Origin: a virus
Taxonomy: Duplodnaviria > Caudoviricetes
Strand: one strand, 5' to 3'
Virus record (IMG/VR): IMGVR_UViG_2907128583_000005
Location: 64,001-128,000 of that record
DNA: 64,000 nt
Under the pieces are notes generated by a model. It saw nothing but the letters and a program-made list of their open reading frames with translations, made no database searches and was not told the origin of the DNA. Numbering within the stretch: the first letter of the stretch is position 1; the number at the start of each line of letters is the position of its first letter. The translations under genes were made by a program, and so were the position numbers. Positions 6,072 to 62,111 of the stretch are shown here, piece by piece.

Positions 6072-8171
6072 TTAAACCGAACAAGACAAACAATCGTCTC
6101 TGGAAGTGTCTTTAGTACGCGCATAATATAATGTCTTGATGCCTTTATGGTGGGCATATAAATCAATTCTGTTTAAATCTCTTGTAGTGTGAGTGTCTTT
6201 CATAAATAAAGTAAAGCTAATAGCTTGGTCGATATGCTCTTGGATCGTTGCAATCATATCAACAACACGGAACATATCCATATCATATGCTTCTTTATAG
6301 AAAAACCACGTTTCAGGTGAAAGGTAAGGCATTGGATAATAAGTCTTAGAGTTCCCATATGTACGTTGTTCGATTTTTTCCATAATGGGCATCACCGAAG
6401 CAGTTGACGACTGAACATAAGAAATGCTTCCAGTAGGAGCAATTGCTAAACGATATGCGTTTCTTAAGCCATATTTCATAACAGCATCGCATAACGACTG
6501 CCAATCTTGGATTGTAGGGATATAGATACCATCAAAGAGAGTTATTGCTTTGTCAGTTTTAGGTGCATAATCCTGAGTAGTATACTTTTCAAAGTATTTT
6601 CCCGATGCATATTCACTGTCTTCAAAACGGTAAAACTTTTTCCCAGTCTCTTGCGCAATCTCCATAGATCTCTTTAGCGAATAGTAATTAACCATCATAA
6701 AAAATGTGTTTACGAAATCTCTGGCTTGTTCACTTTCATAGGCAATTTTATTTTTAGCCAAGAACCCATGAAGATTCATTGCCCCCAATCCTACAGATGC
6801 CATTAAATCATTTGCCAAACGAATAGCTGGTGCATTTTTAATTGAAGTTCGTTCAGCCACCTCTGTTAAAGCATCCATCGCAATTTCAACAGTTTCCTGA
6901 ATCGATTTATTTTCCATAACATTCACTATATTCAATGAGCTTAAATTACATGAAACGTCCATACCTAAGATATCTTCTTCGTCATAGTCATTGTATTGAG
7001 ATACTTTTGTTAATTGTTGAATTTCAACACAAAGATTGCTGAATTTTACTTTACCTATTTTTTTGAGTGCATGAACTGCATTTACGTTATCCTCGAACAT
7101 CATATATGGATAACCAGATTCAAATCGTAGAGATGCCATTTTTTCTAGTAATTTTCGAGGATTGATTTTATCTTTTCTTATTCTGGGATTTTCGACTAAC
7201 TTATCGTACATTTCATTTATATCCATATCATCTAAATGAACACCATATTCTTTAAATACCGTATGAGGATAAAATACATATGTGTCTCTATCATCCCTAG
7301 CGAGTTCAATAAATTTATCTGGAATTACAACACCAACAGATAAAGTTTTCACTCGAACATCTTCATCTGCTGAGATTTTTTTTGTGTCTAAAAAGTCATT
7401 AATGTCAGCATGGAAGACATTGAGGTATACAGCACCAGAACCTTGTCTTTGCCCCATCTGATCGGCATATCTAAACGCGTTGTCCAGCAGCTTCATAACG
7501 CCTACGACACCTTTTGTCGCATTTTCTACACCTTTAATTGCTTCTCCTTTTGCTCTAATCTTGGTAAGAGAAAGCGATACACCTCCACCAAGTTTGGATA
7601 GTTGCATTGATGTCTCAATTGCTTTTGAAATATCATTCAACGAATCTCCAACTTCCATAAGAAAACAAGAAACAAGTTCTCCTCTTCTTTTGCGTCCAGC
7701 GTTTAAAAAAGAAGGTGTGCTTGGTTGCAATTCTTGATTAATTAACGCTGTAACTAACTTTTTTGCCTTTTTATAATTTCCATTTGCAAGATAAAGGGCC
7801 ACGATTGCTACGCGATCTTCATAGCGCTCAAGTATTTTTTTCTTGTCGTTTGTTTTAAGAGCATAATCATTGTAGAATTTAAAAGCGCTCATAAATGAAG
7901 GGAATCTGAATTTCTTTGCATATGCAATATCATAAATATTCTTAGTTTCTTTATATGTATATTTATTTAAGAACTCTTCCTCATAGTAGTCATTCTCTAT
8001 AAGGTAGTCCAACTTTTCTTTTAAGTTGTGAAAGAAAACTGTATTTTGATTAATGTGTTCAATGAAATATGTTTTTACAGCCTCTTTATCCTTTTCAAAT
8101 TGATACTGTCCATTATTTTGAATCATTATTTGATTGTTTAACTCGATGTGTTTGGCTATTCTATTAGACAA
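6072..8171 (-). CDS. nrdE: class Ib ribonucleotide reductase alpha subunit
   Basis: [32 protein letters not shown] and C-terminal CLSC. Confidence 0.97.
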
Positions 8172-57248: not shown

Positions 57249-57333
57249 TTAATTGTATAATCATTATACATTTTTATTTCTAGCTATAAAGTATGTAATC
57301 AGCCGAACCATACGCTCGGCAATGGCTATGCAA

Positions 57334-57708
57334 CTAAGACAAGGCTAAGTGTAGCAAATTTGAGTATTTATTTTTTTCATACAAGCTATATAATGTTTCT
57401 GGATCTGTTACTTTTAATCTAGCTAACTTAAAACCATCAACTTTTTCTTGACATAATCTCTCAAGTGCCATGATATTATTATCATTATAATCAACAATAA
57501 ACTCACTCTTGTCCTTATATCCTTCTTCATTGATCAACTGTTTTCTTTTTTCTGAGAGATAAATATATTCAGAGCCAGGATTACCATTGCAAAATAAATA
57601 CATTTTTTGTCTGTCAGAGTCACTTCTCAAAAGGAACTCAATTTTTTTAATTATTATTGTGGCGCTTTTAGGTATATCAAGCCGATAAATTAGTTCGTCT
57701 TGCTGCAT
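57334..57708 (-). CDS. hypothetical protein
   Basis: 124-aa ORF with AAGGAG RBS; promoter TTGCCT-16 bp-TATAAT at 57744-57771. Confidence 0.75.
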   Translation of the reverse strand: MQQDELIYRLDIPKSATIIIKKIEFLLRSDSDRQKMYLFCNGNPGSEYIYLSEKRKQLINEEGYKDKSEFIVDYNDNNIMALERLCQEKVDGFKLARLKVTDPETLYSLYEKNKYSNLLHLALS

Positions 57709-57867
57709 AGCATTATCTCCTTGCTGTCGAATTCTATACTTTTATTATACGAGATTACTATAATTAGGCAACAACTTTACACACCATGTCTAAATATATT
57801 GACTTAATCAATATACTGGAAAAACGTCCATATAGTGTGTCACTTTTTGTCGAATCGTTTTATTCAG

Positions 57868-57920
57868 GAACTTATGTTCGTATTTATTTTGATTATACTA
57901 CTGCCAAAAGGCATAAGCAA
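57868..57920 (-). promoter_or_regulatory. sigmaA promoter with downstream LexA box
   Basis: TTGCTT (57920-57915)-17 bp-TATAAT (57897-57892); GAAC-TTAT-GTTC at 57868-57879. Confidence 0.75.
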
Positions 57921-57940
57921 CATAAATCCAAAAATAACTC

Positions 57941-58354
57941 TTATTTTTTATTGTTTCTTAATTTTTGTAGCATTTTTTTCACATTGGTTAAATGTACCGC
58001 AGCTATCTCTACAAAGCTTTTTTTGTTTTTATCAAAGTATATCTCATATACCTTTTCATCAATTTCATCAATTTTAGTAACGTCAGCCATGCTCCCTCTA
58101 CCTACTCTTACGAAGCCTTCAATATTCTCAAATAAACGCATCGTCTGTTCCGTTCTTGTTTCATCGATATACTCGCCCATATCTGTTATGTATACAATTC
58201 TTGTTTGCCCAGTTCTTCCACTTTTCTTTTCAGTTCTAAATCCTTGAATTTCAGATACTGGCAGCATAATTGCTACTTCGTCTATTTTGTCACCTATCTT
58301 TTTAACTACTTTTATAGTATCCGTTGATTTCAATTTTTTCACCTCATAATTCAT
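57941..58354 (-). CDS. stand-alone LytTR DNA-binding domain protein
   Basis: GFVRVGRGSMADVTKIDEID resembles LytTR F.R.HRS.IVN..KI; no receiver domain; follows agrBD. Confidence 0.7.
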   Translation of the reverse strand: MNYEVKKLKSTDTIKVVKKIGDKIDEVAIMLPVSEIQGFRTEKKSGRTGQTRIVYITDMGEYIDETRTEQTMRLFENIEGFVRVGRGSMADVTKIDEIDEKVYEIYFDKNKKSFVEIAAVHLTNVKKMLQKLRNNKK

Positions 58355-58397
58355 TTGGTGTCTCGCCTCCCAAAAGAAGAACGAGACACCAAATATC

Positions 58398-58520
58398 TTA
58401 TTTCAATTCTTCTGGCACTGCTTCTCCATGGATCAACGTCCAACTAGCAGTGCTTACTACTGTTACAGCCAGCAGAGAGCAAAAACTACCAACAATCAGC
58501 ATAAGTTTGTTCAATTTCAT
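58398..58520 (-). CDS. agrD: AgrD-like cyclic lactone autoinducer propeptide (40 aa)
   Basis: MKLNKLMLIVGSFCSLLAVTVVSTASWTLIHGEAVPEELK: amphipathic leader, S-WTLI-H core, charged PxxL tail; GAGGAGGTG RBS; ATGA overlap with agrB. Confidence 0.88.
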   Translation of the reverse strand: MKLNKLMLIVGSFCSLLAVTVVSTASWTLIHGEAVPEELK

Positions 58521-59053
58521 ACCTTTTCACCTCCTCTCAAGCGTATCAAGAGGAGACTTTGTACTAAAGCTGCTAAATTCAAAACTGGAATATTAATCGT
58601 ATATATTAGCGTAACTAATATTAAAGATATAATTTTAAACCATTTAAAATTTTTTGGTTTCACTCTTGTTTGCTGTTCGATCTTACTTGGTGCATACAAC
58701 ATTACTAATATTATACTCGCTAGGTACATAGCGAAAGAATAATTATCGAAATAATTGCCACACAATGCAATTAAAATTATAACAAGAGATGAAAAAACTA
58801 TACACATTTCTGCTGATTTAAAATGAAACCCACCTGAAAACATTCTTACTGATGAAAAACCAATTAGTGCAAGTATTGCTTCTTTGGTAATCCCCAGCAA
58901 CATTGATGCTATTAAAACAATAAATATTGGAATGGTATTCGATATAATAAATTTAATTGTATACCTTACTATTTGTTGTGACGGTAATTCATCAGGATAT
59001 TTCCTTTTAGCTGCAATACTCCATTTATCAGCCAACTGATTAATCATATTCAT
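58517..59053 (-). CDS. agrB: AgrB-family peptide-processing membrane protein
   Basis: RMFSGGFHFKSAEMC (catalytic His/Cys), YAP motif, multiple TM segments. Confidence 0.93.
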   Translation of the reverse strand: MNMINQLADKWSIAAKRKYPDELPSQQIVRYTIKFIISNTIPIFIVLIASMLLGITKEAILALIGFSSVRMFSGGFHFKSAEMCIVFSSLVIILIALCGNYFDNYSFAMYLASIILVMLYAPSKIEQQTRVKPKNFKWFKIISLILVTLIYTINIPVLNLAALVQSLLLIRLRGGEKV

Positions 59054-59681
59054 TTTTAATTTCCTTTCTTCTTTCTATAAAAATCAGTAAGACAAATATT
59101 ATTATCCAAAAAACTACGCTAATAGTCATATTATCGAAAGTTGGCTTTGTCATTACAGACACTCCGATCAGAGAAATAATGAATAATACAACATTAGAGA
59201 CATTAATTTTGAATTTCAAAGTATATTGATACGGCAGTGTTGTAAAGAAAACAGATCGTTTTCTTAATGCAAGGCTTATTAAGATCATTGTTGAGTCACC
59301 TAAAAATTGAATCAACGTTCCATAATCTTTTGTTGTTGTAAAAAAATCAATTTTTAGTGTTAATGCGAGTATGACAGCAGTTAAAGTTTGTAAAATCATC
59401 TGCACTAAGAAACTAATTCCCGATATTCTCAGTGATGAAAGAGGGGATAACTTAAATAAAATTACAAGAAAAAGAATCATGCATATAAGGTTTGTCACGG
59501 GAGCAATCCTATTCGGAAAACCATATTCCATATATAAGTAGGAACCCACCGAAATACACAGGCTTGAAACGATAAATTGTATCCAATAATCTCTTATTTT
59601 TACCGAATACATACCAAATCCAAAAATAAAAATCGCCATTCCATCCAACATTGAGAATATTATGTATTTAGCTGTTTCCAT
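59040..59681 (-). CDS. polytopic membrane protein resembling an AgrC sensor domain without the kinase module
   Basis: About 213 aa, roughly 7 TM segments, no HisKA/HATPase motifs; overlaps the agrB start. Confidence 0.65.
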   Translation of the reverse strand: METAKYIIFSMLDGMAIFIFGFGMYSVKIRDYWIQFIVSSLCISVGSYLYMEYGFPNRIAPVTNLICMILFLVILFKLSPLSSLRISGISFLVQMILQTLTAVILALTLKIDFFTTTKDYGTLIQFLGDSTMILISLALRKRSVFFTTLPYQYTLKFKINVSNVVLFIISLIGVSVMTKPTFDNMTISVVFWIIIFVLLIFIERRKEIKNEYD

Positions 59682-59728
59682 GTTTGCCCTCACGTTCTTA
59701 TAATTAAATATAATGAATTTATAATGTA

Positions 59729-59757
59729 AATATATCATGCGTTTATGTTGATGTCAA
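59729..59757 (-). promoter_or_regulatory. sigmaA promoter of the agr-like cassette
   Basis: TTGACA-17 bp-TATATT. Confidence 0.75.
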
Positions 59758-59794
59758 CACAATTTTCCATAAAAAAAAGTAGAATAAGAAATAC

Positions 59795-60772
59795 TTATTC
59801 TACTTCAGGATAAACTCTTTTTATGGTTTCTTCATTGAGGAAATCTTGAGTATACATTGTACTGTTGATTATACCACCATCACGCAAACCAACATTAAAT
59901 TGTTTACATATCTTATGAATATCTGAACGATCTAAAGATTTTTTGTTATCACGAAGGTATTCTATTCTTGCCATTTCTAACATGCCTGAATTTCTTATAT
60001 CGATTGGAGATAAACTTGGCCTATTCAGTTTTTCACCAAACTTTGTAACAACAAATGTTATTAATGACTGTTTAACTTCTTCTCCTCTCGTGCTCTTTAT
60101 TATATATTCATTGTCTTTTAATTTGGAAGTATCTTTTCTTTTGCTACCTTCACCAAAATTGGATTTGTACACTTCTTCTTTATCGGCTGCTAAAAGAGAT
60201 TTAATTAAATATTCACTAACAATAATTTCTCTTTCTGTTGTTTCATAGCGGTCTACATTTGTTAATTTTATTTTATTATTAGCCTTATCGATATTTTCCA
60301 CTTTTAAGGTTCTTATTTCAGAACTGTTTCTACCCAGAATACCTTCAAATATTGATAGAATTATCGCTATATCTCTATAACTATCCAATTCAGATAAAGC
60401 ATCGTCTAAATGCTCTTTTTTAATTAATGTTTGTTGTGGTACAAATTTTTCAAAGTCGCTTTTCCCTTTCATTGCTGCAAGTGGATTCATTTTATCTTTT
60501 CTAAGCCCTTGCGCACTTGCCCACTCAACGTATTTCCTGAGAATTGACCCATAATTCATTGCACTACTTAACTTTGTTGGAGCTAGAAGATAAATAACCT
60601 CTTCAAATTCACTCAATGTAAAATCATAAAGGTCTTTTTCCAATCTCATTTCCACTCTGCTTGCACGTTTTAATTTTCCTTCGTAGTTTTTACGAGTGTT
60701 TTCTCTAAATTCACTTAAAAATCTTTTTTTGATCTCTGGATTATATAGGCTATCCCCATATATATTATTCAA
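59795..60772 (-). CDS. YopR/MrpR(SroF)-like master repressor with tyrosine-recombinase fold
   Basis: YNPEIKKRFL..E..LEKDLYDFT..YVEWA..N..FEGILG..SEI..LSP..IRNSG..QDFLNEE matches SPbeta YopR as I recall it; 325 aa; directly downstream of a YopQ-like gene. Confidence 0.8.
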   Translation of the reverse strand: MNNIYGDSLYNPEIKKRFLSEFRENTRKNYEGKLKRASRVEMRLEKDLYDFTLSEFEEVIYLLAPTKLSSAMNYGSILRKYVEWASAQGLRKDKMNPLAAMKGKSDFEKFVPQQTLIKKEHLDDALSELDSYRDIAIILSIFEGILGRNSSEIRTLKVENIDKANNKIKLTNVDRYETTEREIIVSEYLIKSLLAADKEEVYKSNFGEGSKRKDTSKLKDNEYIIKSTRGEEVKQSLITFVVTKFGEKLNRPSLSPIDIRNSGMLEMARIEYLRDNKKSLDRSDIHKICKQFNVGLRDGGIINSTMYTQDFLNEETIKRVYPEVE

Positions 60773-60776
60773 TTTG

Positions 60777-62111
60777 TTACACCTCTTTGATTATATTTTC
60801 AAAATGTTTTAGTATGTCCCCTTGAATGCGAGTAGACGAATAAGCTCTTTTAGCCTCAAATAAATCTATAAGTGTTTTATCGTTACTTAAATCAAGACTA
60901 TCAATTATTTTATTTAACTCCTGTGGATTAATGCTTTGATTATCTTTTTGATACATTTTATAAGCGATCACTGTATATCCAAAAAACATTAAAGGGTGAT
61001 TTATATAGCTCTTATCATACTTTTCTCTATTTTCCAAAAAAGCATCCACATACAAACTTATCAAAATACCAAAATATTTCACAAGATAGTGAGATACATT
61101 TTGATAATCAAGATACGTCTGAGGATTAAATGTTCTTTCAATCGCTAAATTTAAGATACTGAAAGTTGTCAATTGCCCAACAGCAGTATTTGGCTTAGTT
61201 GTAGAGGCAATTCGAATACCTTTAAGTTCGCTGTCTTGGTTGGTTTGTAATTCTTTTACAACAGAAGCAGATCGCCCAGTAGCAGAAAGTTCTTTCTTTC
61301 TGTCTTTATTTAAAATGTTGATTGTATTTATCTGACCAAAAAATTTAGAGGCAGTTTGCTGATCATAAGTTCTAATCGATAGTTCAAAATTAAAATTTAA
61401 ATCATTTTTCTCATTCATTGCTTTGACAGTAGCCTGCAAACGGTGAAAACCATCCAATATACTTATAGTAGCATCTTTGTTTATAATTAATTGTCCAAAC
61501 TCGTCTTCTTTCGGAATCCAAGTTACTGGTTCTGATTCAAAGTTATAAACGTTAAATCTTATGGTATCAGTTAAATAGTCATTCGCAACCAGTTTATTAG
61601 CAATAGTTCTCACGGAAGACTGATTTACAATAGGCGTTTCAATAATTCCATCGTTGCGATTGCCTTTATATTTTAATCCTCTTTGAGACCTTGGATCGTA
61701 TATTATCATCTGCGATTCAAACATCTTATTTAGAAGCTTGGCTGATATTTTTGAAGAATATGCTTTTTCGTCAATTTGTATTGCATTAAAAGTCAAAGGT
61801 AGACTTATTGTTTCACTAACAAATTCTGATGCTACACTTTCTTTTGCTTCTCTAATTTCAGTCGCTGTAAAATGTTCAAGTGGATCTATACCACCAAAAA
61901 CACTATTAATGCACTCAGTAAAGACACATAATAAGGGTAGACTAACCTCTTCAATGCTTTTCTTTTTTAAAATAATCTCGTTTAATGTTCCATAGGGAAC
62001 TCCTAGTGAGTTTAATCTGTCATTTACACTAAGTATCTTCTTTCTACTTGTCTTATGTTCATCAATTATCTCAGTAATTATCTTTTCTACTTCTCTACGG
62101 TCAGTTTTCAA
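60777..62111 (-). CDS. YopQ(SroE)-like DndB/DGQHR (ParB-like) domain protein
   Basis: SQRG, ILDGFHRL, FFGQIN; synteny with the YopR-like gene. Confidence 0.78.
   Translation of the reverse strand: MKTDRREVEKIITEIIDEHKTSRKKILSVNDRLNSLGVPYGTLNEIILKKKSIEEVSLPLLCVFTECINSVFGGIDPLEHFTATEIREAKESVASEFVSETISLPLTFNAIQIDEKAYSSKISAKLLNKMFESQMIIYDPRSQRGLKYKGNRNDGIIETPIVNQSSVRTIANKLVANDYLTDTIRFNVYNFESEPVTWIPKEDEFGQLIINKDATISILDGFHRLQATVKAMNEKNDLNFNFELSIRTYDQQTASKFFGQINTINILNKDRKKELSATGRSASVVKELQTNQDSELKGIRIASTTKPNTAVGQLTTFSILNLAIERTFNPQTYLDYQNVSHYLVKYFGILISLYVDAFLENREKYDKSYINHPLMFFGYTVIAYKMYQKDNQSINPQELNKIIDSLDLSNDKTLIDLFEAKRAYSSTRIQGDILKHFENIIKEV

Follow-up and report, generated by a model that had tools for sequence, protein, structure and literature searches.

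An agr-derived peptide cassette with a stand-alone sensor and a receiver-less LytTR protein beside the repressor operon of an SPbeta-like Paenibacillus prophage

How could a cyclic-peptide signal be passed on by a system that encodes neither a kinase nor a receiver domain, and to what end would a temperate phage carry such a system? The question is raised by four consecutive genes in the 64,000-nucleotide (nt) stretch of DNA analyzed here (the window), which comprises bases 64001-128000 of a 218,271-bp IMG/VR provirus (record IMGVR_UViG_2907128583_000005, completeness rated 99%). Located directly downstream of homologues of the SPbeta yopQ and yopR genes, they are predicted to encode a seven-helix membrane protein, the peptidase/cyclase AgrB, an AgrD precursor peptide and a DNA-binding protein made up of a LytTR domain only. 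The reading favored here, to which we assign a probability of roughly 0.55, is that these genes are a phage-borne copy of a four-gene, agr-derived cyclic-peptide cassette that would work without phosphorelay, the membrane sensor controlling the LytTR protein by contact. Because neither a kinase nor a receiver domain is present, direct contact is the most likely way for the signal to pass. A preliminary description of the window, made from the sequence without database searches, had proposed a promoter, a protein of about seven transmembrane helices without kinase domain, AgrB, a 40-amino-acid (aa) AgrD with a ring serine, a LytTR-only protein, overlaps among the first three genes and an adjoining YopQ/YopR-like pair, and all of these elements were recovered in the searches and models reported below.

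The four proteins of the cassette

The membrane protein likely starts at an ATG at position 59681, preceded by GAGGG, which corrects a longer open reading frame (ORF; 59040-59738) and gives it a length of 213 aa; its close homologues are 211-213 aa long in eight cases out of eight. The AlphaFold model consists of seven long helices, and neither a kinase domain nor any Pfam or NCBIfam family was found in the protein. Comparison of the model with the PDB (Foldseek) gave no matches at E ≤ 0.001, a sequence profile found nothing there below E 0.23, and the protein atlas clusters searched for the cassette were all unnamed or labelled "hypothetical protein". An AgrC would be a sensor fused to a histidine kinase with DHp and GHKL ATPase domains, whereas this protein ends past helix 7, and the 65 representatives of its family, drawn from 1.84 billion proteins, measure 121-229 aa and include no fused long form.

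Because the PF14501 kinases of Paenibacillus carry another type of sensor, homology was sought in other Bacillota, using a profile of 42 family members against 401 Bacillota genomes, of which 57 matched. Outside the Paenibacillaceae, the matches were of two kinds, covering the N-terminal 185-205 residues of open frames 440-496 aa long or consisting of short frames of 150-205 aa. All four of the long proteins that were scanned possess SPOB_a, HATPase_c and HATPase_c_5 domains, and each of these kinases is adjoined by an ORF of 213-216 aa, which is an AgrB by Pfam in one locus (L296) and AgrB-like by eye in the others. When the sensor family was aligned by hhalign with the N-terminal domains of nine AgrB-adjacent kinases, the match reached a probability of 98.8% (E 5.3e-17, 178 columns), and it is this match that identifies the membrane protein as a genuine stand-alone version of the agr-type kinase sensor. 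The homology between the family and the sensor module of AgrB-linked histidine kinases, as established by profile comparison, is a new finding of this analysis.

Split forms, in which a sensor gene of 149-168 aa is separate from the kinase, exist in other Bacillota. One of them (L302:1399-2758) presents a 168-aa sensor gene, then a separate kinase (by Pfam, with N-terminal helices recognized by eye) and then an AgrB-like ORF, and a sensor gene of 168 aa is seen in another (L298:1402-2449). Natural sensor-plus-kinase pairs of this sort, together with the presence of GHKL (PF14501) kinases in 39 of 41 Paenibacillus genomes, lend some credit to the idea that an unlinked host kinase, or another partner in the host, relays the signal of the sensor, with the LytTR protein acting as an independent regulator. 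The Paenibacillus kinases, however, come with full sensor domains of their own and of an unrelated type: considered as relatives of the sensor, they were rejected on an hhalign probability of 1.4% (30 kinase N-terminal domains). Furthermore, most loci, and phages from two genera, carry the LytTR gene along with that of the sensor, and signaling through a host kinase, which we regard as very unlikely, would leave a co-inherited receiver-less LytTR protein unexplained.

Conserved residues of the sensor are Q98, Q125, F146 and those of the cytoplasmic loop. The most conserved stretch reads LRKRxxFFTTLPYQYxLKFK (139-160), and the protein ends in an RRKE tail. Reading the predicted helices by the positive-inside rule would place the N terminus outside, and loop 139-160 and the RRKE tail inside.

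The agrB gene overlaps the sensor gene by 14 nt and shares an ATGA with agrD. Seven residues of its product (R70, G74, G75, H77, C84, A121 and P122) do not vary among the 38 homologues aligned. H77 and C84, which we take to correspond to the catalytic His and Cys of Staphylococcus aureus AgrB, identify the protein, jointly with its PF04647 match, as a putative His/Cys peptidase of the agr type. The AgrD sequence (MKLNKLMLIVGSFCSLLAVTVVSTASWTLIHGEAVPEELK) scores below the TIGR04223 cut-off, but positional homologues recur in most of the related loci described below, and its position, length, PxEL tail and Ser register are those of a predicted AgrD with a ring Cys or Ser and a charged tail. The ring serine is at position -10 relative to the conserved Pro of PxEL, a register found in 50 of 72 family members; about 20 of the 72 have a Cys at or next to the Ser position, and two could not be placed. 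Since the ring residue is Ser, the product of SWTLI is probably a lactone; natural Ser-lactone autoinducers exist. A survey of AgrD cores, proposed in the preliminary description along with one of synteny with yopR, found ring sequences to be highly diverse across the family as a whole and near-constant in ten loci of a phage clade introduced below (SWTLI, SWTLV, SWTVI and SWTIV, or SWT[LVI][IV]), where sensor identity is 27-34%.

The LytTR gene can be read from an ATG, but its real start is probably a TTG at 58333, giving 130 aa, because a conserved GAGGTG precedes this codon and because in two close relatives, L004 (at 7331-7343) and L005 (at the same place), a stop codon stands among the first codons of the longer frame. 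The AlphaFold model is a single beta-rich domain with a C-terminal helix, whose best PDB matches are the LytTR domain of AgrA (Foldseek E 1.4e-5), ComE and a Bacillus cereus LytTR domain; a sequence profile matched AgrA (3bs1) at 2.9e-5. Among 24 homologues, PF04397 was found in 20 and no further family in any, so that the receiver that AgrA combines with its LytTR domain was found in none of the 24. A receiver-less LytTR regulator co-encoded with a membrane protein is the arrangement that characterizes LytTR regulatory systems (LRS), and the cassette has it. In two more loci (L128:11246-11968 and L127:11175-11909, both on the plus strand), AgrD is followed by proteins of 240-244 aa that look like tandem double LytTR proteins, as judged by eye and clear in L128; the AgrD-like peptide of L127 ends in TIFGAKPVPAELKKKENN and has no Cys or Ser at the usual ring position.

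Chromosomal and phage-borne copies

Matches to the sensor profile, often several per genome, were found in 257 of the 401 Paenibacillaceae genomes searched, and two samples of loci, the 31 best-ranked and 40 lower-ranked ones, were examined for their gene content. The sensor gene lies next to agrB in 31/31 and 40/40 loci, its stop and the agrB start overlapping or standing a few bases apart in every instance. An AgrD homologue is present in 30/31 and 36/40, and a LytTR-only gene follows AgrD in 19/31 and 36/40, respectively, while a MrpR gene is found nearby in 5/31 and 0/40. Judged by gene content and order, the four genes act as one inherited unit, and the four-gene cassette is a common, mostly chromosomal and apparently undescribed system. 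No description of its architecture was found in print in the searches made. In their available parts, the Paenibacillus polymyxa agr papers deal with the peptide ICFGLF (PMC12180512) and with a canonical agrBDCA in the paenibacillin cluster (PMC13700820). The published ring ICFGLF is absent from the loci examined, and a degenerate form of the pattern gave chance matches only in 31 genomes, the one inspected (L213) falling inside an unrelated gene. These papers probably concern another agr locus. The acetyl-modifying gene agrE of PMC12180512 was considered as a counterpart of the membrane-protein gene; the main text of that paper does not describe AgrE, and supplementary data may bear on its nature.

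Linkage to phage genes was assessed in the first place by synteny. The order yopQ, yopR, sensor, AgrB, AgrD, LytTR, orf124 is kept in five of five related IMG/VR proviruses (158-202 kb), and it recurs, with further common phage genes across 20 kb, in five species-representative genomes in which identity falls to the range given above for the sensor and to 32-39% for MrpR. A scan of viral contigs with the MrpR alignment returned the five known proviruses and nothing further. In a quick IQ-TREE reconstruction of 84 sensors, the ten yopR-linked sensors of the window's kind form one clade on a long stem, with a support of 100 in the Shimodaira-Hasegawa-like approximate likelihood ratio test (SH-aLRT). 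A separate clade (93) is made up of three prophages in which yopR is followed by AgrB, sensor, peptide and LytTR, in this order; two prophages with the cassette 2.3 kb past yopR nest within a chromosomal sensor clade, and the sensor of Brevibacillus phage Abouo pairs with a chromosomal Paenibacillus jamilae copy (99), not with the window's clade. The second phage arrangement (L257:7047-9023, L274:7239-9184 and L281:7130-9080, all on the minus strand) includes a short peptide and a longer LytTR-like protein of 153-186 aa; two of its peptides (…KFWIFCDLEK and …KVWLFCDNKK) have no PxEL tail, and their processing may differ.

Seen from the repressor, the MrpR family occupies 40 places in 37 of 401 genomes. 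A cassette lies within a few kb downstream at 10 of these 40 places, in three arrangements, and at 11 of them, in prophages without cassette, the next recognized marker after MrpR is an orf124 homologue. The chance of finding 10 out of 40 places so occupied is P ~3e-22 on an assumption of independence that shared ancestry violates; the figure shows no more than that the association of cassette and MrpR is not random placement. The preliminary description had considered that its reading would fall if the cassette were an ordinary chromosomal Paenibacillus locus with no phage linkage. The first part of that statement holds, as the genome counts make plain, but the second does not, given the distinct clade found after yopR. 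On the evidence of gene order and the sensor tree, what is specific to the phages is this clade and its position, not the type of cassette, and temperate phages have captured the cassette repeatedly, beside lysogeny genes.

Regulatory sites and prophage setting

The features of the locus are collected in Table 1. The cassette promoter ranks best among 15 promoter-like sites in 57250-59900, a region in which the number of such sites is not above chance, and it is kept in 10/10 phage-clade loci. So is the terminator-like hairpin that closes the yopQR unit, the end of which lies 13 nt from the cassette -35 each time. The hairpin between agrD and the LytTR gene was folded for the window's copy only; an inverted repeat is readable by eye at this place in 9/10 phage-clade loci, with differing sequences, the stretch available for the remaining one (L092) being too short for the second arm. 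Because the inverted repeat persists in place while its sequence differs, the hairpin perhaps has a structural role, lowering expression of the LytTR gene relative to that of the sensor.

Table 1. Features of the cassette and its surroundings in the window (positions count from the first base of the window).
Feature	Position	Strand	Details
YopQ-like gene (DndB/DGQHR family), SPbeta-type repression module	60777..62111	-	PF14072 E 4.1e-12; TIGR03187 E 4.9e-12; phrog_5732 8.1e-85
MrpR/YopR-like master-repressor homologue, tyrosine-recombinase fold	59795..60772	-	PF22822 E 1.2e-22; PF22823 E 2.3e-11
Intrinsic terminator-like hairpin and T run closing the yopQR unit	59776..59806	-	sole terminator-like site in 57250-59900
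Cassette promoter, TTGACA-17-TGnTATATT with TG extension	59729..59757	-	11/12 positions; 13 nt past terminator T run
Predicted stand-alone seven-helix sensor module without kinase, 213 aa	59040..59681	-	ORF 59040-59738; AlphaFold pLDDT 89.6; phrog_15604 2.2e-10
Putative AgrB peptidase/cyclase	58517..59053	-	PF04647 E 1.7e-23
Putative AgrD precursor, 40 aa, predicted ring SWTLI, tail HGEAVPEELK	58398..58520	-	TIGR04223 16.3 bits (cut-off 19), E 0.0083
Stable RNA hairpin between agrD and the LytTR gene	58352..58395	-	-28.1 kcal/mol, z -7.3, 0/200 shuffles as stable
Predicted LytTR-only DNA-binding protein, 137 aa from ATG	57941..58354	-	PF04397 22.9 bits (cut-off 22.6); AlphaFold pLDDT 90.2
LexA (Cheo)-box-like palindrome CGAACATAAGTTC just past a -10 element, between the LytTR gene and orf124	57868..57880	-	CGAAC-N4-GTTC
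orf124, conserved phage backbone gene 3' of the cassette	57334..57708	-	syntenic in L003-L007 and L121-L125

On the far side of the cassette, the palindrome CGAACATAAGTTC presumably resembles the consensus of the Bacillus LexA (Cheo) box. CGAAC-N4-GTTC is matched once in the 64 kb of the window (0.17 matches expected). In five distant relatives (L121-L125), an almost identical element, GAACAyrrGTTC, was recognized by eye at the same site after a -10 hexamer. The palindrome suggests an SOS-controlled early promoter, and its likeness to a LexA box would hence leave the cassette flanked by the repressor operon and a probably SOS-controlled promoter. Just 3' of the cassette -10 lies a leader motif, AAATTCATTATATT (59707-59720, minus strand), of which related forms occupy the same place in 10/10 related prophages. 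The window holds 15 matches to this motif at up to two mismatches, against 6.2 expected and with 0/100 shuffles reaching 15, scattered over both strands, and the motif may be an operator. The sequence ATTCGACA is not enriched (3 occurrences against 2.0 expected).

Base composition delimits the element that carries the cassette. The first 50 kb of the record have a G+C content of 40-45% and include glnA- and hflX-like genes, the HflX protein being 99% identical to that of P. jamilae; past a serine recombinase gene, G+C falls to 31-37% and stays there up to ~214 kb of the record, with the cassette in the middle of this block. The element that carries the cassette is a prophage of the P. polymyxa group, low in G+C and roughly 165 kb in size. 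The recombinase gene (594 aa; G000:C1:48336-50120, minus strand), a large serine recombinase encoded outside the window beside the hflX-like gene at the G+C jump (0.40-0.45 to 0.31-0.37), probably marks the prophage integrase and one attachment end. The two genes upstream of the cassette match SPbeta YopQ (1.8e-34) and YopR (2.7e-21) in phmmer searches, and the tandem of MrpR/YopR and YopQ homologues is that of an SPbeta-type lysogeny module. The neighbors of the cassette belong to PHROG families; orf124 itself had no family match in Pfam and PHROGs searches. Downstream come a conserved 384-aa gene and an AAA_24 gene, counterparts of which follow yopR in Brevibacillus phage Sundance, where the record labels the AAA_24 counterpart as a Sak4-like annealing protein. 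As DNA, the cassette region had no match in 50,697 phage records.

RNA-library contigs identical to the cassette region, which weakly support its expression, come from three studies. In one of them, contigs cover orf124, part of the sensor gene and the sensor/agrB junction, and a further piece bridges the 5' end of lytTR, agrD and the 3' end of agrB. In the two others, yopR contigs stop at 59824 and 59839, near the terminator, a weak hint; the index word share in these two yopR-only runs was 0.95, so that the contig gap over the cassette is uninformative.

A promoter-terminator layout typical of morons and a variable slot are the grounds for seeing in the cassette an accessory trait, that is, a chromosomal quorum-sensing unit acquired by the phage, serving the host or its lysogens and having no input to the lysis-lysogeny control of the phage. 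The cassette brings a strong promoter of its own, which the yopR terminator insulates, and the slot after yopR holds other genes or none in related phages. The cassette type is mostly chromosomal, PHROGs places the sensor family in the category "moron, auxiliary metabolic gene and host takeover", and culture RNA-library contigs cover parts of the cassette. The phage copies nevertheless keep to the same site between the repressor operon and the LexA-box promoter in spite of the low MrpR identity, and the three arrangements, which belong to three sensor lineages, all stand beside yopR, just as the Abouo copy stands between integrase and regulator genes. Furthermore, the record revealed no other communication system in searches for AimR: in the whole 218 kb, the best score for NF038310 was 16.7 bits (cut-off 70; a B. 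subtilis control was found), SPbeta AimR gave no phmmer match at E ≤ 1, no AimP homologue was found, and there was no AimR relative within 10 kb of the 40 MrpR genes. A moron without influence on the phage's decision is a serious possibility, if one that falls short of even odds.

Proposed mechanism and comparison with known systems

Under the favored reading, a near-consensus promoter, insulated from yopR by the terminator, would drive the sensor, agrB and agrD, and the hairpin past agrD would reduce read-through into the LytTR gene. AgrB would trim the AgrD tail and close the five-residue SWTLI ring, probably as a lactone, and the peptide would be sensed extracellularly by the 213-aa seven-helix protein, which may have lost, or may never have had, a kinase. 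The conserved, positively charged cytoplasmic loop (139-160) and the tail of the sensor would hold or release the LytTR protein, as in LRS, and the freed LytTR protein would then bind DNA. Within this scheme, the parts are observed directly, with their homologies, conservation and co-inheritance, whereas we infer the structure of the peptide, its binding by the sensor, the contact between sensor and LytTR protein, and the targets of the latter.

Several observations weigh against this scheme. The family scores of the window's own AgrD and LytTR proteins are marginal, and the RNA contigs cannot exclude DNA carry-over or rank expression levels. In the phage clade, mean sensor identity is 0.35 in the outer half and 0.49 in the inner half, though the ring is near-constant. 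A hallmark of LRS, as described in the available part of PMC6193735, is a pair of direct repeats of ~9 bp that lie immediately 5' of the operon -35, spaced by 11-13 bp; such repeats are absent in 10/10 phage-clade loci, where the 13 nt between terminator and -35 leave no space for them. In 20 chromosomal cassette loci, which weigh neither way, the best upstream repeats agreed at 6-8 of 9 positions and had no fixed location. Lastly, an orthologous locus in nine genomes of the P. polymyxa group has sensor, AgrB and AgrD without an adjacent LytTR gene, which indicates that the sensor is bound more closely to AgrBD than to the LytTR protein. The order in this locus is an acyltransferase-like gene, sensor, AgrB, AgrD (ring SYVYV), rsmD and coaD, the last two assigned by reading, and the locus is represented by L126 (G001:C20) and L133 (G398:C1) and also by L088, L094, L095, L099-L101, L103, L109 and L113.

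The same loci bear on the proposal that the seven-helix protein assists AgrB as an accessory factor in the production or export of the peptide or in tolerance to it, the LytTR protein being controlled otherwise. Besides the P. polymyxa-group loci, this proposal draws on the constant adjacency of the sensor gene and agrB in both locus samples and on the second phage arrangement, in which the sensor gene sits between agrB and the peptide gene. According to the part of a preprint that was available, peptide maturation in S. aureus needs a second membrane protein, MroQ. Set against this is the homology of the sensor to kinase sensor domains, and the protein belongs to no protease or transporter family and lacks a conserved His/Glu catalytic set; moreover, for another P. 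polymyxa agr locus, AgrBD alone yielded cyclic peptide in a heterologous host, as stated in the available part of PMC12180512. An accessory factor is therefore unlikely, yet it retains a minor share of probability because the sensor is tied more closely to agrB, because of the P. polymyxa-group loci without LytTR gene, and because the sensor's outer half shows no special conservation in the phage clade, where the ring is near-constant.

Returning to the favored reading of a sensor acting directly on the LytTR protein, the phage would likely use it to gauge how dense lysogens or infected cells are, feeding this information into early or lysogeny gene control; a private signal for lysogens is the alternative use. 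In favor of a link to lysogeny control, the cassette recurs next to lysogeny genes in lineages distinct from one another, has long been retained at a single site and is not accompanied by arbitrium. Position and the missing arbitrium make a part in the lysis-lysogeny choice, or in interference with host quorum sensing, a circumstantial suggestion. In a more far-reaching version, a cyclic AgrD lactone would take the place of arbitrium as a signal between phages or between lysogens, in SPbeta-like phages of Paenibacillus and, independently of them, in further temperate phages of Paenibacillaceae and Brevibacillus. Read by the kinase-less AgrC-type sensor, the signal would cause the LytTR protein to be released or trapped, and this protein would act on promoters between the repressor operon and the LexA-box early promoter and thereby tune lysogeny or induction; this version is doubtful and is offered tentatively. 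Known peptide communication in phages follows the arbitrium scheme, in which a linear peptide meets a receptor in the cytoplasm. If the proposal is true, an SPbeta-like phage without arbitrium would have, in a cyclic peptide encoded beside its master repressor and sensed at the membrane, a second phage channel that works by another mechanism; it would further be the first demonstrated case of an agr-type signal controlling a phage decision and the first LytTR-sequestration system with a known ligand. The cassette would link two fields, offering a candidate ligand to LRS and an agr sensor that works without a kinase. Its presence in about two thirds of sampled Paenibacillaceae genomes points to a large uncharacterized family, and since the system is small and self-contained and its host non-pathogenic and genetically tractable, these questions are directly testable.

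Compared with canonical agr of the S. aureus type, the cassette shares the His/Cys pair of AgrB, a short AgrD with a hydrophobic leader, the position of the five-residue ring, the acidic PxEL tail, a membrane sensor of several helices with homology to kinase sensors and a LytTR output. It differs in that DHp and ATPase domains are missing from the sensor and a receiver from the regulator, leaving no phosphorelay, as well as in its order sensor-B-D-regulator and in the Ser at the ring residue. With the LRS of Streptococcus mutans (HdrRM and BrsRM), as these are presented in the available part of PMC6193735, it has in common a receiver-less LytTR regulator and a membrane protein, so that signaling by sequestration would apply by analogy. 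Unlike in those systems, the membrane protein has no Pfam match, including to DUF2154, the family named for HdrM in the same source, the gene order is reversed, and the upstream direct repeats are missing in the phage clade. The cassette also includes a dedicated peptide-making pair, AgrBD, whereas the signals of LRS are unknown according to what is available of PMC6193735.

Among phages, the Clostridioides difficile phage phiCDHM1 carries agrD-agrB-agrC (PMC3901668, available in part) and is likewise a temperate phage with genes for making and sensing an agr-type peptide; as far as the accessible parts of PMC3901668 and PMC11945551 go, it has an AgrC kinase and no regulator, whereas the cassette has no kinase and a LytTR-only regulator. 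A counterpart is found in Brevibacillus phage Abouo (NC_029029), whose gp44-gp47 are the same four genes in the same order within a lysogeny module; the cassette profiles match at 2.1e-30 (sensor), 8e-50 (AgrB) and 4.5e-14 (LytTR), and the record labels gp46 as a cyclic lactone autoinducer peptide and gp47 as a "peptidase". Abouo is, however, a 45-kb phage unrelated to the SPbeta type. An AgrB gene and a neighboring membrane-protein gene were also seen in Brevibacillus phage Davies (NC_022980), and the paper on Abouo and Davies, in its available part, names only an "Accessory gene regulator B family", in a figure legend (PMC4909266).

Arbitrium (AimR/AimP/AimX), lastly, resembles the cassette in being a phage peptide signal next to an SPbeta-type repression operon. 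In the SPbeta annotation, aimR-aimP-aimX lie just upstream of the yopN-yopR genes, and arbitrium is thus upstream of the operon while the cassette is downstream of yopR. The arbitrium peptide is linear, imported and bound by a cytoplasmic receptor with tetratricopeptide repeats, whereas that of the cassette is predicted to be cyclic and sensed at the membrane. Furthermore, arbitrium peptides differ between phages, in contrast to the ring of the cassette, which is near-constant across deeply diverged phages.

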